Origin: a plasmid
Reading direction: 5' to 3' (one strand)
Sequence record: NZ_CP090008.1
DNA: 64,000 nt
Made by a program: the position numbers and the translations under genes. This document shows positions 29,870 through 46,132 of this stretch, one piece after another; positions within the stretch are counted from its first letter, which is position 1, and every line of letters begins with the position of its first letter. The notes beneath the pieces were generated by a model. It searched no databases. It was not told the origin of the DNA and was given only the letters and a program-made list of their open reading frames with translations.

Positions 29870-30337
29870 ATGGCAGAAAATATAAAAAACTGGGTTAATG
29901 TGTGTGTAGTAAAAAACAATAAAATTCTTTTACTTAATAGACAACATGATGATTTTCCTGGATGGATTCCTCCAGGTGGGAAAGTAGAGTTTCCTGAAAG
30001 TTTCTTTGAAGCTGCTATTCGAGAATTAAAAGAGGAGACTGGTCTAACTGCTTTAAATTTAAAATTAAAAGGTATTTCTGGATTTACCAATACTATTGGT
30101 AACGAAAGGTTCGTATACTACGATTTTTTGTGTACAAATTTTTCTGGAGATATTCGTGCTTCTAGAGAAGGAGAACCTAAATGGTGGAATTTAGAAGATA
30201 TTGAAGAAATATCTATGCAAGAAGAAATTAAAAATAGGTTGCCCCTTTACTTACGTGAAGGAAGTTTTGAAAGTATTAATTACTGGGATGAGTCAAAAAA
30301 ATGTATTAGCCATAATAAAACAATTTTGTTTGATTAA
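29870..30337 (+). CDS. NUDIX hydrolase (MutT-like)
   Basis: Nudix box GGKVEFPESFFEAAIRELKEETGL. Confidence 0.75.
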   Translation: MAENIKNWVNVCVVKNNKILLLNRQHDDFPGWIPPGGKVEFPESFFEAAIRELKEETGLTALNLKLKGISGFTNTIGNERFVYYDFLCTNFSGDIRASREGEPKWWNLEDIEEISMQEEIKNRLPLYLREGSFESINYWDESKKCISHNKTILFD

Positions 30338-30463: not shown

Positions 30464-30995
30464 GGCTCTATAATTTCTGTAGTAGGTAAAACCACTGTAG
30501 GAATTATGGAGTCTATGTTTTTGTAGAAAAAAAGCCCCATAAGACCTATAATGAAAAAGTGGCCAAACCCTCATTAGAAAGAATCTTATGGAACAATTAA
30601 ATTTTATCACAAACATACTTGGAATTAATGACAAAAATATTTTTATCTTAGATTATCTTGATGCTGGAACGCATAAAGAAGTCATTGCTAAGCTCGATTA
30701 TCCTGCCTCTAAATGTCTCAACTGTCAAGGACAAATGGCTAAATATGACTTTCAAAAAGAATCCAAAATCCCCTACCTCGAATGTGCTGGCTACAAGACT
30801 CTCATTCGATTGAGAAAACGCCGTTTCCGCTGTAAAGACTGTGGAAAACATACTAAGATTAGTAGTGAAGAAATCTCCGATGGGAGAGAGTACTCACTAC
30901 TTTTTCTTTATGTTAAAGTAGTGGTGTCTTGTAAAGTCGTAGGGCTCTATGGCGCTAGACGTCGCTTGACAAACTGGCAAGACACCTTGTTTTAG
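30464..30995 (+). mobile_element. ISL3-family IS left end + truncated transposase (N-terminal 90 aa only)
   Basis: GGCTCTATAATTTCTGTAGTAGGTAAAAC terminal repeat; ORF 30588 N-terminus MEQLNFITNILGI...CLNCQGQMAKYDFQKESKIPYLECAGYKTLIRLRKRRFRCKDCGK is the ISL3 zinc-finger N-domain, then frame decays. Confidence 0.7.
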
Positions 30996-31091: not shown

Positions 31092-32015
31092 ATGCGTGCA
31101 GTATTTGGAATTGATGTAAGTAAAACAAGCTCTGAGGTGGCCATTTTAGTCAACAGTAAGAAGATTAATGGCTACACCATACTCAATGATGCCATTGGGT
31201 TCAATCGCCTGTTGGGCGACTTGAAAACTGTTCATAAACCAACTTACGTGCAGGAAGAAGTTTATCAACACCTGCGTGATTTAAGCCGTTTCTATCAAAA
31301 TATGACAGAAGATCTTGTTCAAACTAAAAACTGTCTGCACAAGGTCCTACAAGTCACCTTTCCTGAATTGGAAAATCTATTATCCACCCCTACTGGAGAG
31401 CAATATTGGAACTTAGTGATGGCTTTTCCATGCAAAGAGTTTATATTAAGCTTATCTCAAAGTAACTTGTGTGAGATTATCCGTCAATCTACCTCCAAAC
31501 GCATCTCTGAAAAGCGTATTGCTTACCTGACTGATAAACTTATAAAACTTGCTAAACAATCTCTTTGTGCGGTCAAGAAAACCTCTCCAATGCTTGAAGA
31601 GGTTCGTTACTATGCTCAAGAATTGCTTCGTCTTTCTGAACGCAGACAAGTTGTCTTAAACGACATGGTAGCTCTAGCTCAGCCTTTACCAGAATATGAC
31701 ATCTTACGGTCAATTCCTGACATCGCAGAAATCACAGCGACATCTATCATTGGCGAATTGGAAGATATTCGTCGCTTTCAGTCTACCAATCAAATCAACG
31801 CTTTTATTGGCATTGACCTGAGACACTATGAATCTGGGAACTTTCTCGCCAAGGAACACATCACTAAACGAGGTAATCCCTATGTCAGAAAAATCTTGTT
31901 CAAGTGCATTCACAACATCGCTTCAGCTAGTCATACCAATCCTTGTCATATCCCAGATTTCTATGAGAAATGTATTACCTCATTACGCATAACAAACTTT
32001 ACGATTACTCTTTGA
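31092..32015 (+). mobile_element. IS110-family transposase (possibly C-terminally truncated, 307 aa)
   Basis: MRAVFGIDVSK N-terminus and DEDD-type N-domain typical of IS110; shorter than usual ~400 aa. Confidence 0.65.
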
Positions 32016-32542: not shown

Positions 32543-32773
32543 ATGAATGGGATAGGTTATATACTTAGGAGGTTACGGAAAGAAAAAGGGATTACACAGA
32601 GAGTTATCTATACAAATCTTTGTAGTCGAAAGCAACTTTCTAGGATAGAAAATAATACATCTTTCCCATCAGTATATCTTTTATATCATATTTGCCAAAG
32701 ATTAGAAGTGACAATAGATGAAGTTATCAAATTAACATTAGAAGGAGAAAGTAATGGCAATCAGCACAAGTGA
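32543..32773 (+). CDS. short XRE/Rgg-like HTH transcriptional regulator (76 aa)
   Basis: ILRRLRKEKGITQRVIYTNLCSRKQLSRIENNTSFPSVYLLYHICQRLEV; overlaps start of QueA-like gene. Confidence 0.6.
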   Translation: MNGIGYILRRLRKEKGITQRVIYTNLCSRKQLSRIENNTSFPSVYLLYHICQRLEVTIDEVIKLTLEGESNGNQHK

Positions 32774-33800
32774 ATTAAAGTATGAATTACCGGTCGAATT
32801 AGCTGCTCGACAACCTATAGAACTGACATCGAGTAGAAGGGATGGAACTAGATTAATAGTAGGTTTTAAAAACTCTCAAAAAATCATTGATGATGTTTTT
32901 ACAAATTTTACTAACTATATAAATTCAGGAGACTTACTTATTTTAAATAATAGTAAAACAATTTCACCAATTTTTTATGCATATTCCGATAAATATGGAG
33001 AGGTGAAATTTCATATTAAGACTAAGACTGATTTAGGATATGTATCATATATCAGAATTAGAGAAGATTTAAAAGATAAAATTATTGGTGAGAACTTTAT
33101 TGTAACTGATGAAATAGAAGTATCTGTAAATAAACGAACTGAAGGCGATGAATTTTTGTGTAGTTTTAATTGTTCTGAAGAGGATTTGTATAACTATTTA
33201 TTAATTAATGGTGAGGCAGTGAAATCAATTTATACAAAGAAAAAATGGTCAATTGATTATTATCAAAATGAAGTTGCAAATAAATTAGGATCTTTTGAAA
33301 ACCCAGCAGCGAGTCGGCACTTTACTAATAAAATGTTAAATATTTTACGTGAAAAAGGGGTAAGAATCGCGTATATTACTTTAAATTGTGCTTCGGTTGA
33401 TACAAAAATTTTTGAGGATATTATAGAGAAACATGTTGTTTTTAAGGAATACTATGAGATCCCCGAAGAAACAGTAAGATTAATTCAAGAAACAAAATTA
33501 AACGGTAATAAGGTGTTTGCGGTTGGAACTACAGTTATTAGGACTTTAGAAAGCTGTAATTATGATAATTTCAGAATTACTTCCCCTTTAAAAAATTATA
33601 CTGATTTATATATTCATCCTGGACATAATTTTAAAGTAACAGATGCTTTAATTACAAATTTTCATGGATCAATGACTAGTAGACTTGCTCTTTCTGCAGC
33701 TGCAATTGGTGTGGATAATATTATGAATTTATACAAACATGCAATCGAAGAAAAATATTTATTTTATGAGTTTGGGGATGCGAATTTATTATTCATGTAG
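32754..33800 (+). CDS. QueA-like S-adenosylmethionine:ribosyltransferase-isomerase paralog
   Basis: Collinear with QueA: YELPVELAARQP..., GDLLILNNSKTI, VGTTVIRTLES (QueA VGTTSTRTLE), ITNFHGSMTSRLALSAA, YKHAIEEKYLFYEFGDANLLF (QueA YxHAxEExYRFFSFGDAMLI). Confidence 0.75.
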   Translation: MAISTSELKYELPVELAARQPIELTSSRRDGTRLIVGFKNSQKIIDDVFTNFTNYINSGDLLILNNSKTISPIFYAYSDKYGEVKFHIKTKTDLGYVSYIRIREDLKDKIIGENFIVTDEIEVSVNKRTEGDEFLCSFNCSEEDLYNYLLINGEAVKSIYTKKKWSIDYYQNEVANKLGSFENPAASRHFTNKMLNILREKGVRIAYITLNCASVDTKIFEDIIEKHVVFKEYYEIPEETVRLIQETKLNGNKVFAVGTTVIRTLESCNYDNFRITSPLKNYTDLYIHPGHNFKVTDALITNFHGSMTSRLALSAAAIGVDNIMNLYKHAIEEKYLFYEFGDANLLFM

Positions 33801-33831
33801 TTTAGTAAATAACTAGAAAGGGGGTGATGAT

Positions 33832-33906
33832 ATGAAGAAGTTGACATTGAAAGAACTGGTTGATAAAAATAATGATTTGCTCTCACGTTGCACAATCAAT
33901 AAATAA
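33832..33906 (+). CDS. candidate 24-aa precursor peptide MKKLTLKELVDKNNDLLSRCTINK
   Basis: Strong RBS AAAGGGGGTG 6 nt upstream; located between QueA-like and PqqD-like genes. Confidence 0.4.
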   Translation: MKKLTLKELVDKNNDLLSRCTINK

Positions 33907-33972
33907 TTAACCACGGAAAAATCCAATGAAGAATGATATTATTTCTTCATTGGAGTTTATTTTGGAGGGCTT

Positions 33973-34239
33973 ATGCTTTATAAAGTTAATCGAGACGTAG
34001 AAATAACAGAAGAAAATGGATATCAAGTTATTCATAGATATTCAGATGATTCGTATTTTTCCTTAGAAAATGATACTTTGTTTATTTTATTGAGTTATAA
34101 TGGTTTAAATAAATTGCAAGATATTGCAAAAAGCTTTGCAAAATATAAAGGAATTTCTAATAACAAAGCTTTAGAATACGTAGAACAAATCCAAAAATAT
34201 TTAGTTTCAGAAGGAATAATTGTCATAGATGAGAACTAA
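33973..34239 (+). CDS. PqqD-like (RiPP recognition element) protein
   Basis: 88 aa; ...FSLENDTLFILLSYNGLNKLQDIAKSFAKYKGISNNKALEYVEQIQKYLVSEGIIV matches PqqD pattern. Confidence 0.55.
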   Translation: MLYKVNRDVEITEENGYQVIHRYSDDSYFSLENDTLFILLSYNGLNKLQDIAKSFAKYKGISNNKALEYVEQIQKYLVSEGIIVIDEN

Positions 34240-35095
34240 ATCTAAGTTATTTAATAATATAGCAGAAGATAATATAGACTCCCTTTATGTACAATTGTGT
34301 AATTTAATATATAAAAATGGTAAAGTTGTAATTTCGAGAGGCATGGAGGTAAAAGAATTAATTGGGGTTAACTTAATTTTAACTAATCCCAAAAGACGCT
34401 TTTTAGAAAATGCCAACAGAAAATTAAAACTATACTACGCTATTGGAGAATTCATATGGTATATGAGGGGGAGTAATAGTTTAGAGGAAATTCAGTATTA
34501 TGCCCCTAGCATGTCACAGTTTTCTGATGATGGTTCTATTCTTCAAGGAGCTTATGGACCTAAGATTGTAACTCAAATCGATAAATTGATTACACTGCTA
34601 AGACATGACAAGGGGACTCGTAGGGCAGTTTTACCTATTTATTCTGCGAGTGAATTAGGTAAAGATAGTAAAGATATCCCATGCACACTCACATTAGAGT
34701 TTTTGATTCGAGCTAATAAGCTTCATCTCATTGTCAATATGAGATCAAACGACATATTTTTGGGGCTTCCGTATGATATTTTTTCTTTCACAATGATTCA
34801 GGAATACATTGCAAATAAGATAGGTCTAAATTTAGGATATTATTATCATAATATCGGAAGCTTACATGTCTATAAGAAACATTTTGATAGAATAAAAGAA
34901 ATATCAACTATGAATATACATAAAACATCAGAATTCAATAACTCAAATTTAATCTTTAAAAATTTAAGTGATTTGTTAAACATTGAAAAATCAATTAGAA
35001 ACGGAAGTCCATACAATATGAGCAAGGAATTACTTAATAATTCGGATTTCAATAGAATAAAGATTGAACTAGAGAAATATAAGGATAGTAGGTGA
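34229..35095 (+). CDS. thymidylate synthase-fold pyrimidine-nucleotide hydroxymethylase/methylase-like enzyme
   Basis: LKLYYAIGEFIWYMRGS (ThyA WKGVLEELLWFLKGS), RRAVLPIYSASELGKDSKDIPCTLTLEFLIRANKLHLIVNMRSNDIFLGLPYDIFSFTMIQEYIA (ThyA RRIIMSAWNP...PPCHALCQFYV...[25 protein letters not shown]); catalytic Cys retained. Confidence 0.7.
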   Translation: MRTKSKLFNNIAEDNIDSLYVQLCNLIYKNGKVVISRGMEVKELIGVNLILTNPKRRFLENANRKLKLYYAIGEFIWYMRGSNSLEEIQYYAPSMSQFSDDGSILQGAYGPKIVTQIDKLITLLRHDKGTRRAVLPIYSASELGKDSKDIPCTLTLEFLIRANKLHLIVNMRSNDIFLGLPYDIFSFTMIQEYIANKIGLNLGYYYHNIGSLHVYKKHFDRIKEISTMNIHKTSEFNNSNLIFKNLSDLLNIEKSIRNGSPYNMSKELLNNSDFNRIKIELEKYKDSR

Positions 35096-35098
35096 GAA

Positions 35099-35683
35099 AT
35101 GTCTATCGGAAAACTAATCTATATATGTGGAATTGATGGTTCTGGGAAAACAACATTAGCCAAGAATCTTTCTAATCATTTTGGTGATAAATCAATATTT
35201 TTGCCATTAAATAATTCAAAAAGATTCATTAATGAAATTGATAGTTTCTGTAAAGAGTATAATACAGACAGGTGGAGTATATTTTCAGAATATTTTAGGG
35301 GAAATATTTGGGCGTTAGAGCTAGTTTATTTTTGTGAAAATATTTTAAAACCCGCTCTAAAAAAGTACGAATATGTATTCATCGATAGATATTATATATG
35401 TAATGCTATATATTCTAATTTATTAGTCACTAATAAGTTGGTTAATAGACTGCATGAATTACTGATTAAACCAGACATGGTTTTTTATATCAATATTAAT
35501 CCAGAGATCGCTTTTGAAAGAATTTTAAAAAGGAATGAGCAAAAAACGCCGAAAGAAAGTTTGGACAATTTAAAATTAGCTTCTGATTTATATTCAAGAT
35601 ATCTTGAAGATAAAAGTTATTATGAATTAGACGGAGAGAAGTCAGAGAATCAAATTTTAAAGTCTGTATTACAAATTATTTAG
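35099..35683 (+). CDS. dTMP-kinase-like P-loop nucleotide kinase
   Basis: LIYICGIDGSGKTTLAKNL (Tmk Walker A GIDGxGKTT); 194 aa. Confidence 0.65.
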   Translation: MSIGKLIYICGIDGSGKTTLAKNLSNHFGDKSIFLPLNNSKRFINEIDSFCKEYNTDRWSIFSEYFRGNIWALELVYFCENILKPALKKYEYVFIDRYYICNAIYSNLLVTNKLVNRLHELLIKPDMVFYININPEIAFERILKRNEQKTPKESLDNLKLASDLYSRYLEDKSYYELDGEKSENQILKSVLQII

Positions 35684-35699
35684 AATTTAGGATTAAGAT

Positions 35700-36689
35700 A
35701 TGAAATTTGAAACAGTACTAGATTTTTATATATACTATTTGGAAATCCTTCTGAAAAGGGAAAAAAATCATACTAAAGTTGTCCCATTTTCGGAGATAGC
35801 TAATAAAGTCGAGGTTTTCAACAATAGTATTGAGATTGTTCAAGGAACTCATAGTAATATGCTATTTAGTAGATCTGAATTTAATTATAATGTAGTGCAT
35901 ATGCTATATTCTTTGAGTGGGAGAACAGATTCATATATATTAAAAAAATATAAAAGTTCATATTGGCGATATTCGAATGAGGGATTTTATGTCAATACAA
36001 TTGGGGAGCGGTTATATACTTTATATGGTAATCAAATTAAACGTTGTGTAAATTTTTTAAAAGAAAATATTTATACGTCAGATGCCGTTTGTTTTATGAA
36101 ATCTTTTGAAAATGAAAATATTGAATGTACTCTAAATCTTCATTTTTATTATAGAGATAATCGATTAAATTTGGAGTTATCATATAAAGGTTCTAGTTTA
36201 TTAGAGTATACTAACTCCGATCTATTTATTTATTCTTCTTTACTTTCATTAATGAGCCATTGGTTAGATGTGGAACCTGGAAGTTTATTTTTAAAATGTC
36301 ACTCGATTTTTATTTCAGAAAATGATCTAGAAAGAGCTAAGAAACTATTAGAAATTGGTAAATCGTTGAGAAATATTGGTATTTCAATGAATCATAGGTT
36401 TTCATCCAGTATTGAAACTTATCGTTCAGAATTTTCTGAAGCTATCAATAGAATAATTGCTTGGGATACTGTTGATATTACTCAGAGAGTTTCTGAGGAA
36501 TTAGAGTATATAAAAAAGTATTTTACTCCATATATTCAAGACTTGTTACTTATTCTTTTAGCGGATAGATTTCATCAAACTGATAGTGATTATAAAATAG
36601 TATTGAGTCAGCTCTCAGATAGGTCAATTGGGAAATTTAAGGAAACAATTGATAAAATACAATTTAATAAATTATTAGAGGTAATTTAA
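35700..36689 (+). CDS. second thymidylate synthase-fold paralog
   Basis: SDAVCFMKSFENENIECTLNLHFYYRDNRLNLELSYKGSSLLEYTNSDLFIYSSLLSLMSHWLDVEPGSLFLKCHSIFI aligns to ThyA C-terminal half incl. catalytic Cys position. Confidence 0.55.
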   Translation: MKFETVLDFYIYYLEILLKREKNHTKVVPFSEIANKVEVFNNSIEIVQGTHSNMLFSRSEFNYNVVHMLYSLSGRTDSYILKKYKSSYWRYSNEGFYVNTIGERLYTLYGNQIKRCVNFLKENIYTSDAVCFMKSFENENIECTLNLHFYYRDNRLNLELSYKGSSLLEYTNSDLFIYSSLLSLMSHWLDVEPGSLFLKCHSIFISENDLERAKKLLEIGKSLRNIGISMNHRFSSSIETYRSEFSEAINRIIAWDTVDITQRVSEELEYIKKYFTPYIQDLLLILLADRFHQTDSDYKIVLSQLSDRSIGKFKETIDKIQFNKLLEVI

Positions 36690-36691
36690 AT

Positions 36692-36952
36692 TTGATAATT
36701 AAAAAGAGTCTTGCTGCTATACAACGTTCAGTATCAGGAAATGAATTTTTGTTAAATTTACTTACTGATAGGACTTTTCTCCTTAATGAAGTTTCTCTCT
36801 ATATTTGGAGTAATCTTGGAGAATGTAGTACTGAGGAAATAGCTGCAAATTTATCTAAAATGTATAATGAAAAAACCGAGATAATTCAAAATGATGTAGA
36901 TGAAGTTATTAATATTTTACAGGAAGAAGGGTTAATTGAAATTCTGAATTAA
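36692..36952 (+). CDS. PqqD-family RiPP recognition element protein (TTG start)
   Basis: LLNEVSLYIWSNLGECSTEEIAANLSKMYNEKTEIIQNDVDEVINILQEEGLIE = classic PqqD pattern. Confidence 0.65.
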   Translation: MIIKKSLAAIQRSVSGNEFLLNLLTDRTFLLNEVSLYIWSNLGECSTEEIAANLSKMYNEKTEIIQNDVDEVINILQEEGLIEILN

Positions 36953-36970
36953 GAGAGGTGGAGGATATTA

Positions 36971-37657
36971 ATGGCTGAAATTATTTATAGTATGATTGCT
37001 AATGAGATTTCAGAGCAATTGTCAGAGGATAATATTGTAATTTGGAAATCTGAGATGGATGGACTGGGGACCTCATTATCTGATATCGATGCATATTGTA
37101 TCTGCAAGGAAGAAAAAGTAATAAAAAGCTTTGTATATGAAGGGACACCGGTTGATATTGAATATGTGACTTCGGAAAGGCTAAAAGCTAAAATTAATAA
37201 AATTTATCAATACACTAATCATGGTGATATTTATAAAGGATTAGATGAAGATTTGAAATTATTTTACAGATTACAAAGAGGAGAGAAATCAGCTAAATTT
37301 TCATTGATTGGAGTTGAAGTTCCCACACTTGAGGAAATTTCTAAGATTGCAGCACAATATTATTATGAATTATTTTTAGGTCTGTATGAAGATGCTTATA
37401 AAATGTACCATGGGAAAAATAAATTAGATTCTTTTGTCCTTTCCCTAGAGACATTACAAATGTCTATTGCAACTTATTTAGCTAGGGTAGGGAAACCACA
37501 ATTTAAGAAAAAATGGCTATTTAAATATTTTAATATAGTAGCTAACAATTCCCTATATAAAGATTTAATTACACAATTAGAATCAACACAGGAATATGAT
37601 TTAATGGAATTCACAGAGAGTATACTAGTCAATTCAAAAAAGCTTCTAGAAATTTAG
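36971..37657 (+). CDS. Pol-beta superfamily nucleotidyltransferase
   Basis: MDGLGTSLSDIDAYCI (G[SG]x9-13Dx[DE] motif). Confidence 0.55.
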   Translation: MAEIIYSMIANEISEQLSEDNIVIWKSEMDGLGTSLSDIDAYCICKEEKVIKSFVYEGTPVDIEYVTSERLKAKINKIYQYTNHGDIYKGLDEDLKLFYRLQRGEKSAKFSLIGVEVPTLEEISKIAAQYYYELFLGLYEDAYKMYHGKNKLDSFVLSLETLQMSIATYLARVGKPQFKKKWLFKYFNIVANNSLYKDLITQLESTQEYDLMEFTESILVNSKKLLEI

Positions 37658-37857
37658 TATATTGAAAGGAGGTGAGATTATGGTCTATAAAAAACCTATT
37701 GTTGAAGATATTAAATTAAGTGCCTCTGCATTACTTGTATAATATCTTAGTATAAGTCGGAGAGTTGAACAGAATAATTATGTAGTTAATATGACTAACA
37801 GGAAGTATTACTACAAAAAATTCTGTTCAACTTTCCATTTTTTATAGAGTAATAAAA

Positions 37858-38664
37858 ATGAGCAAAATTAGGTATATCATAATAAAGATACTATTACATC
37901 AATTTTACGGAATCAAAAATATAAAATTAATAAATTGTGTTAAAAATATGAATAAAGTTTATATTTTTGAAGATATCAACAAAAAGGTCAAAATGGTTTT
38001 AAAAGTAGAATCTGAAAGAAGAATTAATTCGATCAAGTACCAACATATATTTTCCAATTATGGGATATCGCCAAAAATAATTAAAACTAGAACAGGAAGA
38101 CAGTATATAAAGATTTATAGATTGGTAATATTTGTACAAGAGTATGTAACATCTAGTAAAAGAAAGGTCACTTCAACAGAGATTGTGGGATTTTTAAAAT
38201 ATTTTTACGGAAAAATGGATGAAATAAGAGAATATTTACCCGAAGTTTTGACTACTTATCCATTATATAAGCAAGGCGCATTAAGTAAATGGTTTTATGT
38301 AGTCCATGGTGATTTACGTCCACAAAATATTATCATTACCAGGGATAGTTTTAGCGTGATTGATTTTGAGTATTTAAGTCTAGGAATTCGAGAAACTGAA
38401 ATTCTCAAGTTAATTATAATAATTTGTAAATATCAAAGTAATTTGATTGAATCGCTATATTCTAAATTCTTAGAATCAGACGTAATAGAAATGCATATAG
38501 AGGAGGCGATAAGGGTTCTTTTGTATGATCTTCTTAAATCAAATTTTCCTGAAAAGGTCAAGAATAATATTCCAAAGAATTATTTTTTAGAAATAACTTC
38601 TGAAAGGGAGGCATTAATAAACTTTTGCCATACATATTTAAAAAGAAAGGAATCCCAAAAATGA
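37858..38664 (+). CDS. APH/choline-kinase-like phosphotransferase
   Basis: FYVVHGDLRPQNIIITRDSFSVIDFEY (HGDxxxxN ... IDFE catalytic/Mg motifs). Confidence 0.6.
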   Translation: MSKIRYIIIKILLHQFYGIKNIKLINCVKNMNKVYIFEDINKKVKMVLKVESERRINSIKYQHIFSNYGISPKIIKTRTGRQYIKIYRLVIFVQEYVTSSKRKVTSTEIVGFLKYFYGKMDEIREYLPEVLTTYPLYKQGALSKWFYVVHGDLRPQNIIITRDSFSVIDFEYLSLGIRETEILKLIIIICKYQSNLIESLYSKFLESDVIEMHIEEAIRVLLYDLLKSNFPEKVKNNIPKNYFLEITSEREALINFCHTYLKRKESQK

Positions 38665-39710
38665 TTTCAACTGAGATTGAGAAAAAATATCTACTTACAA
38701 AAGAAGAATTTCTATCCTTTAGTAGAGATTTTTTTAAAAGTGCAAAAATTCAAGAACAAACTAATTATTATTTTGATAGTTTAGATTTTTCACTATTAAA
38801 GAGAGGAATGACTCTTAGAATTCGAGAAAAATATGATAAATATATTTTAACATTAAAGAAAAAGAAATCAGTCAAAATAATTGTAGAATCGGAAGAAATT
38901 AATTTCGTAATTACACCGCAAGACTTTCAAGAGGCAATCTTAACTGGAGAATTTCCCCAAAATGTAAAGAAAGAACTAGACTCATTAATTCCCGAAAAGA
39001 AAATTTTTTATCTAGGTTTTCTAAAAACTAAAAGATATGTAATCGAAAAAAATTCTTTGATATATTGTTTAGATAAAAATAATTATTTTGGAAAGGAGGA
39101 TTTTGAATTAGAAATTGAAGGAACAGAGAAAGGACTAAAAGAAATTGAAATTGATATTTCCAAGAGCAAATCTAATAATGTTGGAAAATATGCTAGATTT
39201 ATTGATGAATTATTGAAAGGAAACGGTAATTATCTGATTAAAACTCAAGTGTCTGCAATTATTCTTAATAAAAGTAGCGATAAAGTTTGTCTTATTAAGA
39301 AGGATATTCCAACCTCAAGTATACATAATATGTGGCTTCCACCCGGTGGACATATCGATTTTGGAGAAAATTTAATAGATGCTGTCAAAAGAGAGGTCTA
39401 TGAAGAGACAGGGTTAGAAGTTACGGTTTCAAAATTATCTAGCATTGTATCGTTTCATCAAAAAAAGGCAGAGCAAGCTATTTGTTTCTTTTATGTCGCA
39501 GAATCCCAAAATATTAATGAAATAAATGTCACTGAGCCAGGCATTGAATGCAGGTGGTTTAATTTAAAAGATATACTAAGTGGAGATGATATAAATATGA
39601 CATCCTATCATAAGCTTATAATATCCGACTTGCAAGATAACAGGATTTTATATTTGAATTTAAAAAAATCTGATAATCAATATAATATTGAAAATATAGT
39701 TCATATTTAA
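38661..39710 (+). CDS. CYTH (triphosphate tunnel) - NUDIX fusion protein
   Basis: N-terminus MISTEIEKKYLL (CYTH EIE[RK]KFL start); C-terminal Nudix box GGHIDFGENLIDAVKREVYEETGL; ATGA overlap with kinase gene. Confidence 0.6.
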   Translation: MISTEIEKKYLLTKEEFLSFSRDFFKSAKIQEQTNYYFDSLDFSLLKRGMTLRIREKYDKYILTLKKKKSVKIIVESEEINFVITPQDFQEAILTGEFPQNVKKELDSLIPEKKIFYLGFLKTKRYVIEKNSLIYCLDKNNYFGKEDFELEIEGTEKGLKEIEIDISKSKSNNVGKYARFIDELLKGNGNYLIKTQVSAIILNKSSDKVCLIKKDIPTSSIHNMWLPPGGHIDFGENLIDAVKREVYEETGLEVTVSKLSSIVSFHQKKAEQAICFFYVAESQNINEINVTEPGIECRWFNLKDILSGDDINMTSYHKLIISDLQDNRILYLNLKKSDNQYNIENIVHI

Positions 39711-39894
39711 AAGATTAAAACTAGTTATATATAAAATCTAGGTATAACTGTTCCACTGAATTCCATAGATATAATTAGCTTCTTAAATGTAGGGCTATTT
39801 TATAGCTTGAATATACAATATAAGTGCACAATAAAAACTCATAAGATTTTCTAGTAAAATAGAATTGAACGAACTAGTTACGAAAGGAAATCTT

Positions 39895-40881
39895 ATGAGC
39901 TACCATCATTTTACTATAGATGAACGTGAAAGCATTCTCGTTTACCGTACGCATGACCTAAATTTTTCTCAAATTGCTAAATCACTTCATCGTCATTAGT
40001 CTAGCAGTAGTGGTGAGTGGCAACGACATCTTAAAGAAGGAAGCTATTCTCCAAGTCATGCATAGGAATCTTATCATATGGCTAAATCACACTGTGGGCG
40101 GAAACGTATGCTTGAAATAGATCACAATTTAAGCAATACCGTCAAACATCTATTTCTCGATTACCAATGGTCTCCCGAAGAAATAGAAGGTCGGTTGCGA
40201 TTAGAGTATGGAAAAACTGTTATTAGTTATCAAACAATCTATAGAGCCATTTACAGAGGGCATTTTGATGATAACTCACTATCTCATGGTGCTCGTGGTG
40301 TCATTCGAAAGCTCCGTCATCGTGGTAAAACACGTCATACAAAAGGTTATGTCGAAAATAGAGGGAAAATCTCTATATCTCATACAATTCACGAAAGACT
40401 AGAAGATGCTAATAACCGAACTAGAATAGGAGATTGGGAAGCCGATACTGTTGCAGGTAAAACTAGAAAAGCTTGTTTAGTGACTCTAACTGACCGTTAT
40501 TCTCGTTTTCTAAAAATCCAGAAGGTAGCTGTCAAGAAAAGCAAGTTGGTAATAGAAGCTATGGTAAAAATGTTAGAGCCCTTGACGAAGCATACAATAA
40601 CTCCTGATAGAGGGAAAGAATTCACGTATCATCAGAAATTGAGCGATCAATTGAACATTGAAGTCTATTTTCCTGACCCTCATGCTCCATGGCAACGAGG
40701 AACCAATGAGAACACGAAAGGATTACTTTGAGAGTATTTTCCAAAGGGTAGTGATCTAACATTGGTTGATGATCAGACTATTCAGCTGTGGGAGAACAAA
40801 CTTAATAATAGGCCACGAAAATGTCTTAACTGGAAAACACCTTATGAAGTATTCTATGGGGAAAGTATGCACTTAATTTGA
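39895..40881 (+). pseudogene. IS30-family transposase, disrupted by stop codons/frameshift
   Basis: MSYHHFTIDERESILVYR...(stop)...RIGDWEADTVAGK...TPDRGKEF...HAPWQRGTNENTKGLL(stop)EYFPKG; reading frame broken at least twice. Confidence 0.7.
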
Positions 40882-40953
40882 CAATTCAAGAGTAAAATAA
40901 ATTTAGAAGACATATTTTTATTTGATTTAAGTTATTTGATTTAAGGAGGCGAA

Positions 40954-41745
40954 ATGCTACTAGCTGTAATAAGAAGAAACTGGCAGATGTATAAAAGATA
41001 TTTTCCAGTAACATTGTTTTTTAATAGGGGTTTGGATGCTGGTTTTACTCTATTAGGTTTGTGGTTAATAGCGAATTTTTTATTCGCAAATAACATTAAA
41101 GTTGGTAATGCTATAGAGTACTCAGATTACTTCAGTTATGCTGCAGTAGGATTGGTTTATTATAATGCATCAATTGCTATTCTGATGAATGTAGGGAGAG
41201 CATTAATAACAGAAGTTAGAGAAGGCACTCTTGAAAGTACATTAGTATCTCCTTTTAACATTGTCTATTATTACTTAGGAATCTTTTTAGAGCAGTTTGT
41301 AAGGACCTTTTTGGAATTTCTATTTTCTTATATAATTGCTATTTTGCTCGGTGCAGATTTACAACAAATTACATTACTGATTTTATTGCTTGGCTTCTTA
41401 TATGTTTCGATTTGCTCTTTTTCGATGGGGGTATTCCTATCAAATATAATGTTGTGGTTTAGGGATACATTCATTAGTCAAAATACAATTTTTCTGATAA
41501 TCTTCTTGGTCTCAGGCATTACCTTTCCAATAGAATTATTGCCAAAATTTTTAAGGGTGATTAGTAATTTTATACCGTTAACATATTCTATTAAGGCAAT
41601 AAGAACCTTATATTTGGAAACCCAGACGAGTATGATCAATCTTAGCTTTATACAAGGTTTACTACTTTCAATATTATACTTCTTGATAGGGATTCTGGTA
41701 TATAATAAGGTTGAGAAAAAAATTGTAAGTGATGTTTCATATTAA
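40954..41745 (+). CDS. ABC-2 type exporter permease
   Basis: 263 aa, 6 TM helices. Confidence 0.6.
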   Translation: MLLAVIRRNWQMYKRYFPVTLFFNRGLDAGFTLLGLWLIANFLFANNIKVGNAIEYSDYFSYAAVGLVYYNASIAILMNVGRALITEVREGTLESTLVSPFNIVYYYLGIFLEQFVRTFLEFLFSYIIAILLGADLQQITLLILLLGFLYVSICSFSMGVFLSNIMLWFRDTFISQNTIFLIIFLVSGITFPIELLPKFLRVISNFIPLTYSIKAIRTLYLETQTSMINLSFIQGLLLSILYFLIGILVYNKVEKKIVSDVSY

Positions 41746-41763
41746 GTGAAGGAGAGAAATAAA

Positions 41764-42744
41764 ATGTATGAAGTATTCAATATTTCAAAAGATTATGTAA
41801 CAAAAAAGAGAATAGGATTGTTTAAACATAAAAAAGAAGTTAAAAAAGCTATACAAGATGTAAATTTATCAGTCCCTAGAGGTAAAATTATTGGTGTTTT
41901 AGGAGAAAATGGTGCAGGGAAAACAACTTTAATAAAGATGATGACAACACTTCTATCAAGTGATACTGGAAAAATTTTGATAGATGGAGTTGACATTAAT
42001 CAAAATGTAAAAAATACTCGAAAAAGGATCAACATCATTAGTGGAGGAGAAAAAAATCTCTATTGGAGATTGACTGCAGTTGAAAATTTACTCTATTTTG
42101 CTTCTCTGTACGGTCTTCCAAAGAAAGAGGCATTACCTAAGATAGATAATTTATTGAATGAATTAGGGCTTTGGGAAAGTAAGGATACTCCTGTAGAAAA
42201 ATTTTCAAAGGGAATGAAGCAACGCTTACAAATTGCTAAAGGACTAATCAATGATCCAGAATATTTATTTCTTGATGAACCTACACTAGGTCTAGATGTC
42301 AGTATTGCTTACGAGTTGAGAAAAAAATTAAAAGAGATAGCGGCTAAGCGGAATACAGGAATTTTGTTAACAACTCACTACATGGCTGAAGCAGATGAAT
42401 TATGTGATTATATTTATTTTTTAAAACATGGTAAAGTAATTGTGTCAGGTACCAAAACACAGGTTTTTGAACAATTACAGATGACACCAGAGCTTCATGT
42501 CATCCTTTCAGATAGGGATGATGAAAATTCTTCAAAGCTGGCTCAAGTTAGTCGTTTATTTCCATGTATAATTTTGGAAAAATTTGGTAGTAGTATATTG
42601 TTGAAATTCTCTCTTTCAGAATATAATGTGCAGGATATAATAAAAAGCCTATATAATAATCAAATTGAAATTAAGGAAATAAGATATAATGAGCCTACTC
42701 TTGAAAATGTTATTCTAAATTTAGGAGGAAAGAGCTTAAAATGA
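41764..42744 (+). CDS. ABC transporter ATP-binding protein
   Basis: Walker A GENGAGKTT, LSGG-like KFSKGMKQRL, Walker B LFLDEP. Confidence 0.75.
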   Translation: MYEVFNISKDYVTKKRIGLFKHKKEVKKAIQDVNLSVPRGKIIGVLGENGAGKTTLIKMMTTLLSSDTGKILIDGVDINQNVKNTRKRINIISGGEKNLYWRLTAVENLLYFASLYGLPKKEALPKIDNLLNELGLWESKDTPVEKFSKGMKQRLQIAKGLINDPEYLFLDEPTLGLDVSIAYELRKKLKEIAAKRNTGILLTTHYMAEADELCDYIYFLKHGKVIVSGTKTQVFEQLQMTPELHVILSDRDDENSSKLAQVSRLFPCIILEKFGSSILLKFSLSEYNVQDIIKSLYNNQIEIKEIRYNEPTLENVILNLGGKSLK

Positions 42745-43535
42745 ATTCGATAATAGTTAGTACTTTTAAGAGTGAATTTAGAAGAACATTTTTAAATGAC
42801 AGTATTAATAAATTTTATTTTTTTTCAATGATACTTTGGCCAATTATTTCTCTAATTCAAATTTTTTACAATATGCAAGCCTTTCCAATTACGGATATAC
42901 AAATAGCATCTCTAAGATATGAAGACCAATTAATTTATTTTATATTTATTGGTTATTGTGTTTACATCATTTTTTCAAATGCTGTTCAGAGTGCATGGAG
43001 GCTTGGTGGAGAACGATATCAAGGAACTCTTAGTCAAATTTTTATTGCTCCAATTAAAAAAAATCTATGGCTTTATGCACGTACCTTATCACTTATTTTA
43101 AGTAATTCATGGTTTTTTATCACTATTTTTATTATTGGAAATTTTGTCTATTCTGATGCTTATGAATATATTCTTGCGTCCACTTTTATTTTAGTTGTTG
43201 CATCCTGGATTTGGGCAAGTTTCTTAGGTAGTATTTGTATCAGTTTGAGAGATGCAACGGTAGTTTATGTATTATTGGAGAGCTCTCAAAATACTTTTAG
43301 TGGTGCTAAAGTTCCATTATCAAAATCACCTCGATTAATAAAAGTTATAGGGAGTTTATTTCCCATTAGCTACACAATTATTTATCTAAGAGATATACTT
43401 CTTTATAAAGAGATTATAAGTATAAGTGCTATTTGGTGCTTATGCATAAATATCTTTGTTATTTTATTAACGAAGATAGTGTTAGAAGTTGGAGAAAGAC
43501 ACATGAAAAAAGTGGGCAGTTTTGATTTATTTTGA
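42741..43535 (+). CDS. ABC-2 type exporter permease (second)
   Basis: 264 aa, 6 TM helices, ATGA overlap with ATPase gene. Confidence 0.6.
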   Translation: MNSIIVSTFKSEFRRTFLNDSINKFYFFSMILWPIISLIQIFYNMQAFPITDIQIASLRYEDQLIYFIFIGYCVYIIFSNAVQSAWRLGGERYQGTLSQIFIAPIKKNLWLYARTLSLILSNSWFFITIFIIGNFVYSDAYEYILASTFILVVASWIWASFLGSICISLRDATVVYVLLESSQNTFSGAKVPLSKSPRLIKVIGSLFPISYTIIYLRDILLYKEIISISAIWCLCINIFVILLTKIVLEVGERHMKKVGSFDLF

Positions 43536-43789
43536 ATCGTGCTTAACTAGCTATTTAAATTTAGAGTAATTATTTCATTTAATTTATATTTTATCAATAA
43601 TAAAGGGGTAGTACTAAGGAAAAATTATATAGAGAGTTAGCTGAATCCTCTTCGAAACTCAGTGAAAAATAGTTCAATTATTGTTTCGTCAGATCAACAC
43701 GATTTAATCATTTGATACAATGCTCATATCTTTCAATACTCAATTGTTTTTACAACTTTTGGATGTTTAATTTATACAGTCTACGATTT

Positions 43790-43988
43790 CTACCATATTT
43801 TCAACCTTGCAATCAAGTGCAATACATATTTTCAATAAAATATCAGTAGTGATATTTTCCCCTTTTCCTAATTTTGCTAGAGAAGAGGAGCTAATCCCTA
43901 CTTCTTGCCGGAGCTTTGTTTTGATTCAACCTTTATCAATGAGAAGTTTCCATAATTTATTATAACTAAACTTCATCTGAGTTTTTTC
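43790..43988 (-). pseudogene. XRE-family HTH protein with in-frame TGA
   Basis: rc reads MKFSYNKLWKLLIDKG(stop)IKTKLRQEVGISSSSLAKLGKGENITTDILLKICIALDCKVENMVEIVD. Confidence 0.55.
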
Positions 43989-44588
43989 CTTTGTTCCATG
44001 AAATACCGTAGAGTTCATTTCCGTTACTAGAGAGTCTCAGTACAGTATTTTCTGACAAGAGATGATTAGCTTCTGGATAATACGAGATAGCTTTATCAAA
44101 GGATAAAAAGACTTGTTTGTTCAATGATTTTGATTGGTCATATAGCTTCAACAGGGCTTCGGTTGCTTGGTAACTAATATTACTTAAGAGTAATGAATCA
44201 TGGGCAAGTGCTGGAAGATTAGTTAGATAGAGTATTGCTAAATCGTACAATATCATTCCTTTGAACTTAGTTCCTGTACCGTCGTCGTCAGGGGTATAGA
44301 AGGAATAGCTATTATAGGTTCTGAGGATAATTTGAGGAGCTTTGCGAATATCTGGATAAAGGAAATCATTGAATTCTCGCATTTTAGCATTGATTTTTCC
44401 TTCTAGCTCTATTAGAATGTGATCCAACGCTACTGTATTTTCAAAACTAATATATTCTGTTGGGTTTTCAATCCCATAAACAGATTGCAGTAGGTCTAGC
44501 CAAAAAGACTGGCTCTCTTGTCTTTCTCTACCACGGTTTTCCCAACGCTTAATAAAAGCCTTGGCTTGTTTTTTTCTGTTCTCTAGTG
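43966..44588 (-). pseudogene. N-terminal fragment of an MmeI-like (Type IIL/IIG) restriction enzyme or related PD-(D/E)xK protein; frameshift in A7 tract
   Basis: rc: ATG AAC ACT AGA GAA CAG AAAAAAA then, in the +1 frame, QAKAFIKRWENRGRERQESQSFWLDLLQSVYGIENP... (cf. MmeI N-terminus ...KRWEDASDENSQAKPFLIDFFEVFGI as I recall it); ORF stops after ~207 aa. Confidence 0.35.
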
Positions 44589-44764: not shown

Positions 44765-45355
44765 ATGAAAAAAGATTCTAAGTACATTATTACTTTGGTG
44801 GTCATTTTCCTCGCTCTTGGAGTCATGTTTTTGGTCTCTGCCTTAATGAAGAAAAATGAACCGAAGAAAAAAATAACACCCCCTAGCACCGAACAGGTGA
44901 TTGAAGATTCATCCTCGGAAGACATTCTAAAAGAAGATAAGTATGAGAGATGGCGTAAAGAGGCACTTGCGACCTTAGAAACACAAACACCTGCAGATGA
45001 TGCTGACACGCAAACTGTAAAGAATGCTTTGAAAGAAATGTGTTCTTATGTTGAGACTGTTCAGAACGTAACCGATGTTAAGCCAGATTATCAAAATCAC
45101 TTAACTATTACTAGCACTAAGATGCAGTATGAGCTTGTAGCGAAATTCATGCTAGGTTATAAGTACTCTGATGCTAAAACGCAAGTATTTAAAGCTAAAG
45201 CGGACAATGTTCGTCAGTTTGTCCTTGAGGTTGCTAACCCAGATGGTGCAAAACTCTATTTCTGTGGGAATTACGTTATGGGAACAACTCAAATAGAAGT
45301 AACATCAGTTCATGGAGTAGCTGAAGCTGATCATGCTGAACATGGACATGATTAA
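44765..45355 (+). CDS. membrane-anchored hypothetical protein
   Basis: N-terminal TM; His-rich C-terminus HAEHGHD. Confidence 0.5.
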   Translation: MKKDSKYIITLVVIFLALGVMFLVSALMKKNEPKKKITPPSTEQVIEDSSSEDILKEDKYERWRKEALATLETQTPADDADTQTVKNALKEMCSYVETVQNVTDVKPDYQNHLTITSTKMQYELVAKFMLGYKYSDAKTQVFKAKADNVRQFVLEVANPDGAKLYFCGNYVMGTTQIEVTSVHGVAEADHAEHGHD

Positions 45356-45559
45356 ACGTAGTCAATCCGTCTTACATATCTTGTTTAGCTTCATCAAGAG
45401 ATGGAGCTTTTCTTTATCTATTCAACTCTAATAGGAATTTTTGTCCCTGTGTAAGTGCATATCTTCTTAATCCTTGATATAATAGTGCCATAGCACAGGG
45501 ATTAAAGAATTGGTGATAATAAGAGAATAGGATTAAAGAACGATTGGAGATGAGGAGTC

Positions 45560-46132
45560 ATGGAAAAAGAAACAAAGCGTCTTTTAAGGAAGTTGGTCAG
45601 ATTATTTGACGGACAGACTAAGGAATATCTTTTAAAATATACTGATGATGTTGCTGAGTTAAATATTGAAGAACAAAATAAACTAGCTCAAGAGTTACCG
45701 GCTAGACACTTAAGTGCTGAAATTTTAAGTGATATTCAACGAATTAAAAACGGTGAAGAACCACGTTTCTTTACTAAGGATGGACAATATAAGGGACTAT
45801 GTGTTGAAGAATACAACCAGCGTGACTTTATGACTCGTCAGCAACGTTACGTTCTAAGTTGGGCGTTTGGAATGCTACTCTTTTTGGCAGTCTTTACAAT
45901 TGTATCTTGGAACTTTGTTCCCAACGTTATCCAAAAAATGGAAACTAGTACATCACTATTGAACTATACTGAGAACTATGGCACTCGTCCTGAACAGGTC
46001 TTTGCAATGGTTGTATGTGGTGTTTTATTGATATTACTTTCGGTAGTTGTTTCACTAGTATGTTTGAAGAGGTATCGTAAAAATACTGAAGAACCTATCA
46101 ATGTTGTATTAACCGATGATTTGAGATTATAA
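45560..46132 (+). CDS. hypothetical protein with two TM helices
   Basis: Followed by palindromic terminator aagcttaagctt. Confidence 0.5.
   Translation: MEKETKRLLRKLVRLFDGQTKEYLLKYTDDVAELNIEEQNKLAQELPARHLSAEILSDIQRIKNGEEPRFFTKDGQYKGLCVEEYNQRDFMTRQQRYVLSWAFGMLLFLAVFTIVSWNFVPNVIQKMETSTSLLNYTENYGTRPEQVFAMVVCGVLLILLSVVVSLVCLKRYRKNTEEPINVVLTDDLRL

Follow-up and report, generated by a model that had tools for sequence, protein, structure and literature searches.

A mobile Streptococcus salivarius gene cluster that may join a ribosomal peptide to a modified deoxycytidine nucleotide

Microcin C-type compounds (MccA/MccB systems) are peptidyl-nucleotide antibiotics, and a carboxymethyl-cytidine variant is made in Bacillus amyloliquefaciens. 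Among other peptides that are made by the ribosome and modified after translation (RiPPs), lasso peptides have tailoring kinases and nucleotidyltransferases, as in the paeninodin and pseudomycoidin clusters, and their leaders bear the motif YxxPxLxxxG, which is recognised by PqqD-like RiPP recognition elements (RREs). On the nucleotide side, the phage T4 pathway consists of the deoxycytidine triphosphatase (dCTPase) gp56, the deoxycytidine monophosphate (dCMP) hydroxymethylase gp42 and the deoxynucleoside monophosphate (dNMP) kinase gp1. To our knowledge, QueA has one known reaction only, on tRNA, the thymidylate synthase (ThyA) fold is known to act on free nucleotides only, and we know of no report that places either family, or the others described below, in RiPP maturation. 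Here we describe a gene cluster at positions 32543-43535 of a 64,000-nucleotide stretch of plasmid DNA (record NZ_CP090008.1; the whole stretch is referred to as the window) whose host is Streptococcus salivarius, a commensal that is abundant in the human mouth and gut. All of its genes lie on the + strand, insertion sequence (IS) elements bracket it, and its overall logic, with a leader peptide, RREs, tailoring enzymes and an exporter, is that of a RiPP pathway. We estimate, with a probability of roughly 55%, that this is a horizontally mobile cluster for the biosynthesis of a RiPP class not described before, in which a peptide is conjugated with 5-hydroxymethyl-deoxycytidine (hydroxymethyl-dC).

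An initial annotation of this DNA had named the genes of the cluster, and each of them was found on the + strand where it had been placed, through Pfam and NCBIfam scans and other validation. Most were recovered by Pfam; an 88-aa PqqD protein (P88) and a 228-aa nucleotidyltransferase (P228) had no Pfam match and were validated otherwise. The same gene set, in conserved order, is also present in S. mitis OMI892 (locus L015), Streptococcus sp., Gemella, the Geobacillus thermodenitrificans conjugative plasmid pGeo12a (L009), Brevibacillus panacihumi (L067), Bacillus cereus (L012/L013), the metagenome contig L011 and, in compact form, the metagenome contig L152; we refer to clusters of the window type as family 1. 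The closest relatives of the window's QueA paralog (39-45% identity) lie in this gene set in pGeo12a, B. panacihumi, B. cereus, L011 and L152, and orthologs of all of the window's biosynthetic proteins are present in the relatives' loci. The QueA-, ThyA- and Tmk-like genes are thus not housekeeping paralogs that lie scattered; their synteny is conserved from Streptococcus and Gemella to Geobacillus, Brevibacillus and Bacillus. The idea that the cluster came together by chance, or is what remains of decaying housekeeping paralogs, and has no joint function, could appeal to the IS elements in and around it and to the substitutions at catalytic positions of one streptococcal enzyme, Thy2 (below). 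However, the synteny extends across genera at 26-76% protein identity, the biosynthetic open reading frames (ORFs) have identical lengths and are all intact in eight independent S. salivarius contigs, and the precursor leader bears a signature of purifying selection; the idea is already contradicted by these comparative data, and we regard it as close to untenable. (Copies in S. intermedius are >90% identical.)

Members of the family are few. In a Thy1 scan of one genome per species, the complete cluster was found only in S. mitis, an uncultured Streptococcus and a Gemella metagenome-assembled genome (MAG), and metagenome scans with Thy1 as the query returned only two further streptococcal-type clusters; a metagenome scan with a Bacillales-only Thy2 alignment matched patterns, with no relative confirmed. 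Individual cluster proteins are present on ~600-900 metagenome contigs, and a megablast search of plasmid sequences with 32543-39710 gave no match. Relatives of Thy2 are specific to the cluster family and amount to only ~12 clusters (50% identity) at E<1e-10 among 1.84 billion representatives, and the homologs of P228 to only 5 clusters among 5.8 billion proteins, a profile query included. Streptococcus salivarius, S. mitis, S. intermedius and Gemella carry the cluster on mobile elements. We conclude that the cluster family is a real one, that it is rare and patchily distributed, and that mobile elements carry it. The gene combination had not been recognised by the initial reader, and we too found no characterised pathway, curated protein model or paper that matches it. 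(Note that no description of the system was found in the full-text literature, where coverage of subscription journals is thin, so that an earlier account remains conceivable.) Models for the precursors, P88, P228 and the QueA paralog are lacking in NCBIfam. In RefSeq, the Geobacillus paralog is named as housekeeping QueA and the precursor is unannotated; with such labels, genome mining tools will overlook the family.

The precursor is encoded by a 24-aa ORF, MKKLTLKELVDKNNDLLSRCTINK (33832-33906, + strand), which stands behind the ribosome-binding site GAAAGGGGGTGA at 33816-33827, which had been noted as very strong. Its S. mitis ortholog is MKKLTLKELVNKASDLLACCNATK. Codons 1-10 of the two genes show five synonymous differences and no non-synonymous one, the 10 leader residues being identical, a pattern that reads as a signature of purifying selection on the leader; over the last 14 codons most residues differ, and D15, L16, L17, Cys20 and K24 are kept. 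Related peptides with a Cys-containing core are encoded in eight other loci, namely L009, L011, L067 and L152, three loci of a second family (L068-L070, family 2) and the Acidimicrobiia MAG JBOGFO010000632.1 (L153); the counterpart of Cys20 is invariant in them and the core is otherwise variable. The peptides end in ...EGVFSKCRSDMAFAKCRADLAFSKCRG in Geobacillus, ...FSTFNKCRTDFNKCRTDLTFSKCRA in Brevibacillus, ...GLVFSSCGSK in L011 and ...NDCNVILCV in L152, and they share a core element near the C-terminus that consists of a hydrophobic residue, Ser, Ala or Asn, any residue, and Cys. The Geobacillus and Brevibacillus precursors contain three tandem 5-residue cores, F[SNA]KCR. The Bacillales leaders VYTTPKLLIVG and QYECPELLLVG bear the YxxPxLxxxG motif, and leaders of the YxxPxL type are found in the Bacillales, family-2 and Acidimicrobiia peptides; a lasso-leader model matches the Bacillales leaders weakly (E about 0.06-0.075). 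The short gene thus has a conserved leader and a variable core, and PqqD-like RREs are encoded beside tailoring enzymes. Judged by this pattern of conservation, the 24-aa ORF is a genuine RiPP precursor.

Between the precursor gene and the gene for the first RRE, PqqD-a, there is a stem-loop (33922-33954, + strand) in which a 12-bp stem is followed by a T-rich tract and whose predicted fold has an energy of -19.8 kcal/mol (z -3.9). Hairpins of unrelated sequence occupy the same position in L015 (z -5.4), L009 (-2.8) and L011 (-4.3), making four loci in all. An attenuator hairpin after the structural gene is common in RiPP clusters, and the hairpin 3' of the precursor gene likely serves as an attenuator or a stabiliser of the mRNA. 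With a precursor family that has an invariant Cys, two RREs and this hairpin, the RiPP reading of the initial annotation has been strengthened.

The cluster also encodes a 348-aa paralog of the S-adenosylmethionine (SAM) ribosyltransferase-isomerase QueA (32754-33800, + strand; Pfam Queuosine_synth 1.4e-73). Its residues 6-346 align to positions 2-322 of the 322-position Queuosine_synth model, and the paralog is thus of full length, as had been proposed. On the NCBIfam QueA equivalog model NF001140, true QueA proteins score 445-510 bits and all cluster-associated paralogs 225-310 bits, under the cut-off of 324; the window paralog scores 225.5 bits (and 215 bits on TIGR00113, with a cut-off of 267). 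When compared to 12 true QueA proteins, the paralogs share the derived residues V69T, T172N, A182E, L305G, L310R and S339E, the invariant basic residues R73, K105, R134, K220 and R336 are replaced in every paralog, and 41-53 of the 95 QueA-invariant columns are kept (41 in family 1). By these shared residues, the paralogs form a clade of their own. We infer that they have lost tRNA binding and retained the catalytic core, the role of the basic positions in tRNA binding being itself an inference; SAM-ribosyl chemistry is a plausible activity for such a protein.

The QueA paralog always adjoins a PqqD gene, in at least four cluster architectures, some of which have no nucleotide genes. In the window, PqqD-a (P88; 33973-34239, + strand) is an 88-aa RRE with no Pfam match of its own, which carries the UniRef name 'PqqD family protein' and is orthologous to Pfam-positive PqqD proteins of L009 and L067; it is the probable partner of the QueA paralog. 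Family 2 (L068 8739-18267, L069 8635-18487 and L070 7959-18743, one copy being on a conjugative element) contains genes for TldD/PmbA, a QueA paralog, PqqD, a Cys peptide, a GT4 glycosyltransferase, a PIG-L deacetylase, a radical SAM protein, an AlkZ-like DNA glycosylase and an ABC-2 exporter. Its peptides end in ...GLALACCHKTVE, ...GLALSCCHKTV and ...GLALSCCSKKVTTN, of the GLAL[AS]CC type, and its single PqqD is closer to the PqqD-a class than to the class of the window's second RRE, PqqD-b. In a third architecture (L151), a QueA paralog and PqqD occur with an AlkZ-like protein, an FAD oxidase and an MFS transporter, and in L153 (1278-2765) a QueA paralog and PqqD precede an ORF that ends in ...SYRRPTVKRVEIKSSISGLAMACCKSSGGPH. 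(In its leader and core motifs the L153 peptide agrees with the family-2 peptides of Bacillota, though the host is a high-GC actinobacterium.) Given these nucleotide-free sister clusters and the likeness of their RRE to PqqD-a, the conserved trio is the QueA paralog, PqqD-a and the Cys peptide, and the nucleotide genes are, as judged from gene content, a family-specific add-on to it. The initial annotation had put the QueA paralog on the nucleotide side of the pathway; it belongs on the peptide side, since it is found with PqqD and Cys peptides even in sister clusters devoid of nucleotide genes. We propose that the QueA paralog is the class-defining enzyme, which would modify the peptide under the guidance of an RRE.

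The add-on begins with Thy1 (34229-35095, + strand; Pfam 1e-29), a ThyA-fold enzyme whose best relative in the PDB is MilA, the cytidine monophosphate (CMP) 5-hydroxymethylase (3.9e-37; true ThyA 1e-19). A residue code that separates MilA, the T4 dCMP hydroxymethylase and ThyA has been published (PMC5175136, a structural paper on MilA). By this code, Thy1 and all five of its orthologs have the Cys nucleophile, Glu68, His216, Tyr218 and the cytosine-type Asp186, and the sugar-selectivity residues of Thy1, Arg131 and Ser173, are of the deoxy (T4) type, as in the orthologs, the ribo type being Lys/Ala. Both Thy1 and the second ThyA-fold enzyme, Thy2, have Asp at the uracil-specific Asn position (N177 in E. 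coli), and the ThyA-fold proteins of the window score at most 82 bits on NCBIfam models, with cut-offs of 108-576. Thy1 is thus predicted from its residues to be a dCMP C5-hydroxymethylase or methylase, hydroxymethylation and methylation not being distinguishable from sequence, and the earlier proposal of a pyrimidine hydroxymethylase is sharpened to a dCMP-type enzyme.

Next to Thy1 is a 194-aa Tmk-like P-loop nucleoside-monophosphate kinase (35099-35683, + strand; Pfam Thymidylate_kin 2.4e-22), in which the P-loop GIDGSGKTT and a DRY motif are seen and which scores 81 bits on TIGR00041, just under the cut-off of 83. Further downstream are an APH/choline-kinase-like small-molecule kinase of 268 aa (37858-38664, + strand; Pfam APH 1.3e-5) with the motifs HGDLRPQN and DFE, and a 349-aa CYTH-NUDIX fusion (38661-39710, + strand; Pfam CYTH 3.1e-21, NUDIX 1.9e-15) with an ExExK motif (EIEKK) and an intact Nudix box; the kinase and the fusion both conform to the initial annotation. 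CYTH and NUDIX are encoded by separate genes in L009, L011 and L067. (Note that some start sites are ambiguous and that public gene calls for them vary among contigs. The APH-like kinase may start at 37948, which would give 238 aa; the CYTH-NUDIX ORF opens with TTG at 38625, which would give 361 aa, and the ExExK motif favours the ATG at 38661.)

The nucleotide genes can also be found on their own. In uncultured Clostridia MAGs (L016-L022 and L073-L075, e.g. L017 8726-12178), a MazG-APH-Thy1-Tmk cassette, in some cases with a protein that we call X228b, stands alone, with no peptide, QueA paralog or RRE nearby, and the APH-like kinase is therefore tied to the nucleotide and not to the peptide. 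We had considered a lanthipeptide-like dehydration and cyclisation of Ser-x-Cys by the APH-like kinase; we rejected it on the grounds that the Ser is not conserved, being Ala or Asn in S. mitis, in Geobacillus repeat 2 and in Brevibacillus, and that the APH gene accompanies the nucleotide cassette in loci that lack a peptide as well. X228b, of 228-235 aa, is also encoded in Bacillales clusters (L009 15500-16186; L012 7553-8239; L067 15484-16191); it is absent from the window and the streptococcal cluster, and its similarity to the UDG superfamily is sub-threshold (E 9e-4 to 3e-2). In B. cereus, Paenibacillus and human-gut contigs (L012 2456-9729; L028, L029, L031, L076-L079, L108), Thy1 and Tmk homologs occur with PP-binding carriers, NTP_transf_5, ATP-grasp, acyl-CoA dehydrogenase and ornithine/diaminopimelate (Orn/DAP) decarboxylase genes, and the hydroxymethyl-dC cassette appears to have been reused in other natural-product contexts. 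Plasmids of the honeybee-associated Apilactobacillus kunkeei (L155, e.g. OX335326.1 21029-26192) encode a DNPH1-like nucleotide N-hydrolase, a ThyA-like protein and an ATP-grasp ligase, a MilA/MilB-like layout that suggests a hydroxymethyl-pyrimidine nucleoside product; this locus is unrelated to the S. salivarius cluster.

Cassettes of this kind bear on whether the peptide and the nucleotide meet at all. Two separate modules might share one island, a RiPP made by the QueA paralog with an RRE and an autonomous cassette that modifies deoxycytidine in the nucleotide pool or in DNA, for example for self-protection, with no covalent conjugate. The Clostridia cassettes would fit this arrangement, as would the trio of QueA paralog, PqqD and peptide, which stands alone in families 2 and 3 with an AlkZ-like glycosylase there instead. 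However, Thy2 and P228 are confined to this cluster family and each is locked beside an RRE, it is hard to see, if the nucleotide never meets the peptide, why there are two RREs and why the sugar-phosphate pocket of a ThyA-fold enzyme is remodelled, and no DNA-acting transferase or polymerase is encoded. We therefore consider two independent modules quite unlikely.

The features that argue for a conjugate lie in Thy2, PqqD-b and P228. Thy2 is a divergent ThyA-fold protein of 329 aa (35700-36689, + strand) whose Pfam match is borderline (2e-5) and whose assignment is supported by PHROGs and by the family alignment, so that the two ThyA-fold enzymes and the Tmk-like kinase of the initial annotation are all present. 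Among 14 sequences of Thy2, the nucleophile Cys and the cytosine-type Asp alone are invariant, the ligands of phosphate and sugar are variable, and most sequences have Ala at position 176. In Bacillales, the Thy2 gene comes directly after the precursor and PqqD-a genes, and Thy2 is always near an RRE and a peptide. Judged by the residues that are kept and those that vary, Thy2 may act on a cytosine nucleotide with a bulky sugar-phosphate substituent, or may join the 5-methylene carbon to a peptide nucleophile.

PqqD-b, the second RRE (86 aa; 36692-36952, + strand; Pfam PqqD 2.4e-11), is encoded directly upstream of the nucleotidyltransferase P228 in every case (L009, L011, L067, L152 and S. 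mitis), and the two PqqD-type RREs of the initial annotation are thus supported by Pfam for PqqD-b and by orthology and UniRef name for the 88-aa protein. P228 (36971-37657, + strand) gave nothing significant in sequence searches of Pfam and the PDB, and two of its five orthologs match Polbeta weakly (E 0.012). An AlphaFold2 (AF2) model built on a 5-sequence alignment has a predicted local distance difference test (pLDDT) score of 88.7, with 37 for a single-sequence model, and has the fold of kanamycin nucleotidyltransferase, with a nucleotidyltransferase and a helical domain, matching kanamycin and lincosamide nucleotidyltransferases; the Pol-beta call made previously thus holds by predicted fold and not by a Pfam match. 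In agreement with what had been noted before, no ThiF/E1-like match was found in Pfam and NCBIfam scans of the cluster proteins, and an RRE-paired P228 of this modelled fold is a plausible alternative to MccB as the coupling enzyme. (B. panacihumi has, in addition (L067 17240-17353, 19936-21038), a second Tmk-like gene, an Orn/DAP decarboxylase and a second pol-beta-type nucleotidyltransferase of 275 aa adjoining a third PqqD, as well as further small ORFs with KPxL-type leaders, MKEYKKPKLILV... and MIKMYKAPKLKSV....)

We reasoned that these proteins could form the following pathway. The NUDIX/CYTH protein would convert dCTP to dCMP, Thy1 would convert dCMP to 5-hydroxymethyl-dCMP with methylene-tetrahydrofolate as the cofactor, and the Tmk-like and APH-like kinases would phosphorylate, and hence activate, the 5-hydroxymethyl-dCMP. 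In parallel, PqqD-a would offer the precursor to the QueA paralog, which would put the epoxy-dihydroxycyclopentyl unit derived from the ribose of SAM on a nucleophile of the core, either the thiol of the invariant Cys or the amine of a neighbouring Lys. Nucleotide and peptide might then be joined by Thy2, whose phosphate and sugar pocket is remodelled as would be expected for a substrate with a bulky group, or by P228, which would be guided by PqqD-b and act on a hydroxyl group. The ABC-2 transporter would serve for export of the product or for immunity. The peptide would thus probably be decorated with a modified deoxycytidine nucleotide. Aminoglycoside-type nucleotidyltransferases and kinases act on cyclitol hydroxyls and, by analogy, one may speculate that the cyclopentanediol is the acceptor for the ANT-like P228 or the kinase. 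A retained epoxide could be a DNA-alkylating warhead, and in the sister families the nucleotide genes are swapped for an AlkZ-like DNA glycosylase; AlkZ-like DNA glycosylases are a self-resistance family against DNA-alkylating genotoxins. (The AlkZ-like gene of family 2 likewise hints at an epoxide warhead.) It is possible, and we put it forward tentatively, that the cluster founds a RiPP superfamily in which the ribosyl skeleton of SAM is transferred to a peptide by a QueA-type enzyme and the peptide is joined to 5-hydroxymethyl-deoxycytidylate by Thy2 and/or by RRE-guided P228.

Several observations weigh against a peptide-(hydroxymethyl-dC) conjugate made in this way. All of the steps above are drawn from homology and gene neighbourhood. 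The leader in the window, MKKLTLKELV, has no YxxPxL motif, and no precursor was found in the examined B. cereus L012/L013 or L151 sequence. The S. salivarius core holds one Cys only, so that the QueA paralog and Thy2 cannot both use Cys. Streptococcal Thy2 has the substitutions E68H, R175K and A176G, in which the catalytic Glu68 is replaced by His, and its activity is perhaps impaired or different. The nucleotide cassette exists without a peptide, and its peptide link is thus not obligatory. An IS30 element splits the biosynthetic genes from the exporter and is possibly polar on exporter expression. Finally, Pfam scans found no leader peptidase or protease domain in any ORF of the window and no C39 peptidase domain in the ATPase or the rest of the exporter, so that neither a leader peptidase nor a peptidase-containing exporter is encoded there.

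The question of proteolysis also touches on what is released. In a scaffold-peptide (pearlin-type) route, the peptide would be just a carrier on which a small molecule, a modified nucleoside and/or a cyclopentyl unit bound to Cys, is put together and then cleaved off, and what is secreted would be a modified nucleoside of low mass or a peptidyl fragment of very few residues, not a RiPP of peptide size; a secreted nucleoside had already been raised as an alternative in the initial annotation. The three tandem F[SNA]KCR cores of Geobacillus and Brevibacillus suggest that the released units might be very small, and relatives have proteases nearby, a CPBP protease being encoded with the cluster on pGeo12a and TldD/PmbA with those of family 2. 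The S. salivarius cluster encodes no protease, however, and an ABC-2 exporter and a leader/core layout suit ordinary RiPPs equally, so that computation does not separate the two routes. We consider a scaffold route unlikely, although one to be taken seriously, and favour a conjugate that is exported as such.

We also weighed whether the cluster might be an island for anti-phage defence or DNA hypermodification that acts by depleting or modifying nucleotides. It is AT-rich and IS-flanked (GC content is 27-29% over 33-40 kb and 41-44 kb, against ~36-40% in the flanks, the fall that the initial annotation had described) and has AbiEii-like genes nearby. Moreover, the best PHROG of Thy1 is a phage ThyA-like family (2e-55), PADLOC gave generic matches for the kinase and the NUDIX domain, and the fold of P228 weakly resembles that of the Hailong nucleotidyltransferase HalB (template-modelling score 0.30-0.37). 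But PADLOC has no match for the QueA paralog, Thy1, Thy2, either PqqD, P228 or APH, the only matches being generic P-loop, NUDIX and ABC ones; known defence systems have no use for a conserved precursor, a pair of RREs or an exporter; and no nuclease or other effector is encoded. Searches of Pfam and PHROGs for enzymes of DNA-level hypermodification (5-hydroxymethyl-pyrimidine DNA kinase, glycosyl- and amino-acid transferases, a dedicated polymerase) found none, only steps at the level of the nucleotide pool being present. With its signature proteins unmatched in the PADLOC scan, we rejected the defence reading, which we regard as very improbable.

The limits of the cluster are given by comparison with S. 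mitis. In tblastx, 32543-39737 and 40938-43547 are colinear, gene for gene, with one unbroken block of S. mitis OMI892, which argues that 32543-43535 are the true limits, that the IS30 between the two segments is a lineage-specific insertion and that the genes at 43.5-47.9 kb are not members. The first gene encodes a 76-aa XRE-family helix-turn-helix regulator (32543-32773, + strand; Pfam HTH_19 7.8e-9) and shares its last 20 bp with the beginning of the QueA-paralog gene; L011 and S. mitis have an ortholog immediately upstream of their own QueA paralog (45% and 73% identity, respectively). It had been called an XRE/Rgg-type regulator, of which the XRE part stands and the Rgg part does not, as it matches HTH_19/HTH_3 only. 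A quorum-sensing system of the SHP/Rgg kind (short hydrophobic peptide with its Rgg regulator) was accordingly rejected for the 24-aa peptide: the regulator has no peptide-binding domain, and the peptide family reaches Geobacillus and Acidimicrobiia, where it is accompanied by RREs.

The IS30 insertion (39738-40937, + strand, with a transposase remnant at 40078-40731; Pfam rve) is not part of the system. It is absent from the S. mitis cluster, in which the genes that flank the site are contiguous, and at the same site in other S. salivarius contigs there is an intact transposase of 328-338 aa. Thus the decayed IS30 and the ABC-2 permease-ATPase-permease that follows it are both present as the initial annotation had described them, and only the counting of the IS30 as a component of the cluster had to be given up. 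The exporter consists of a permease (40954-41745; Pfam ABC2_membrane), an ATPase (41746-42744; ABC_tran) and a second permease (42741-43535; ABC2_membrane_3), all on the + strand, and has orthologs in S. mitis, L009 and L011. (The start of the ATPase is ambiguous between 41746 and 41764, giving 332 or 326 aa.) Downstream of the exporter are a DUF2326 fragment (43966-44427, - strand) and several small ORFs (44765-47662) with no Pfam match, none of which is conserved at the S. mitis locus.

Beyond these limits, a 48-nt ISL3-type terminal sequence at 30464-30511 (direct repeat D1; strand not assigned) is repeated, with 94% identity and in the same orientation, at 47908-47955, and the pair brackets 17.4 kb, which may be a composite mobile unit that includes the cluster and ~4.4 kb of non-conserved genes (43.5-47.9 kb). 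Beside the left end are an ISL3 Zn-ribbon fragment (30588-30995) and an IS110 element (31092-32015), so that the IS remnants noted earlier on the left, inside the cluster and at the ISL3-type repeat on the right are all accounted for. Further to the left, a stand-alone NUDIX hydrolase of 155 aa (29870-30337, + strand; Pfam NUDIX 1.1e-16) is 81% identical to the product of the S. mitis gene L015 7520-7990, which immediately adjoins the cluster there, and could be an accessory gene of the cluster that IS activity has moved away. Its conservation exceeds that of most genes in the cluster; its orientation is the reverse of that in the S. mitis layout, and the ISL3 and IS110 elements lie between it and the cluster.

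If our reading is correct, the QueA and thymidylate synthase folds would gain peptide-directed functions, and the cluster would define a new RiPP class that combines a SAM-derived carbocyclic epoxide with a peptide-hydroxymethyl-dC conjugate made without MccB. The product could influence how members of the human oral and gut microbiota compete, or how they interact with their host.

Among described systems, the cluster is close in outline to the microcin C type, with which it would share a ribosomal peptide, a (modified) nucleotide, the recruitment of tailoring enzymes of the tRNA-modification type and a dedicated exporter. Unlike those systems, the window has no MccB/ThiF-like adenylyltransferase (Pfam, NCBIfam), its precursor ends in ...CTINK, with Lys, rather than in the C-terminal Asn that becomes isoAsp-nucleotide, and it has RREs, a QueA paralog, ThyA-fold enzymes and an ANT-like nucleotidyltransferase, such that the linkage would not be a C-terminal phosphoramidate. 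With lasso peptides, which have the PqqD-like protein B1, the family shares stand-alone PqqD RREs, the YxxPxLxxxG-type leaders of the Bacillales relatives and, in the B. cereus relative, an NTP_transf_5 gene, whereas no lasso cyclase (Asn-synthetase-like) and no B2 transglutaminase-like protease were found in Pfam and NCBIfam searches, and the leader in the window is without the motif.

Thy1 has its nearest likeness in MilA/BcmA (mildiomycin, bacimethrin), by its 3.9e-37 match to MilA and its cytosine-type Asp, and it resembles T4 gp42 in its deoxy-type Arg/Ser pair; the trio of NUDIX protein, hydroxymethylase and nucleoside-monophosphate kinase in the window mirrors the dCTPase/gp42/gp1 pathway of T4. 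However, the window has no N-glycosidase of the MilB/BcmB type and no DNA polymerase or glucosyltransferase as in T4, and its genes form part of a RiPP-like operon that also encodes another, divergent ThyA-fold enzyme. The QueA paralog has the full-length Queuosine_synth fold of the tRNA preQ1(34) S-adenosylmethionine ribosyltransferase-isomerase of queuosine synthesis and keeps 41-53 of 95 invariant columns, but the paralogs reach 225-310 bits where true QueA reaches 445-510, five invariant basic residues are lost, and the genomic partner is a PqqD RRE with a short peptide rather than tgt or other que genes. Finally, P228 shares only 10-14% sequence identity with ANT(4')/KNTase, LinB and AAD(9) and, unlike these, is coupled genomically to an RRE; because of this coupling, we take the modelled enzyme presumably to act on a peptide-borne hydroxyl and not to be a resistance gene product.

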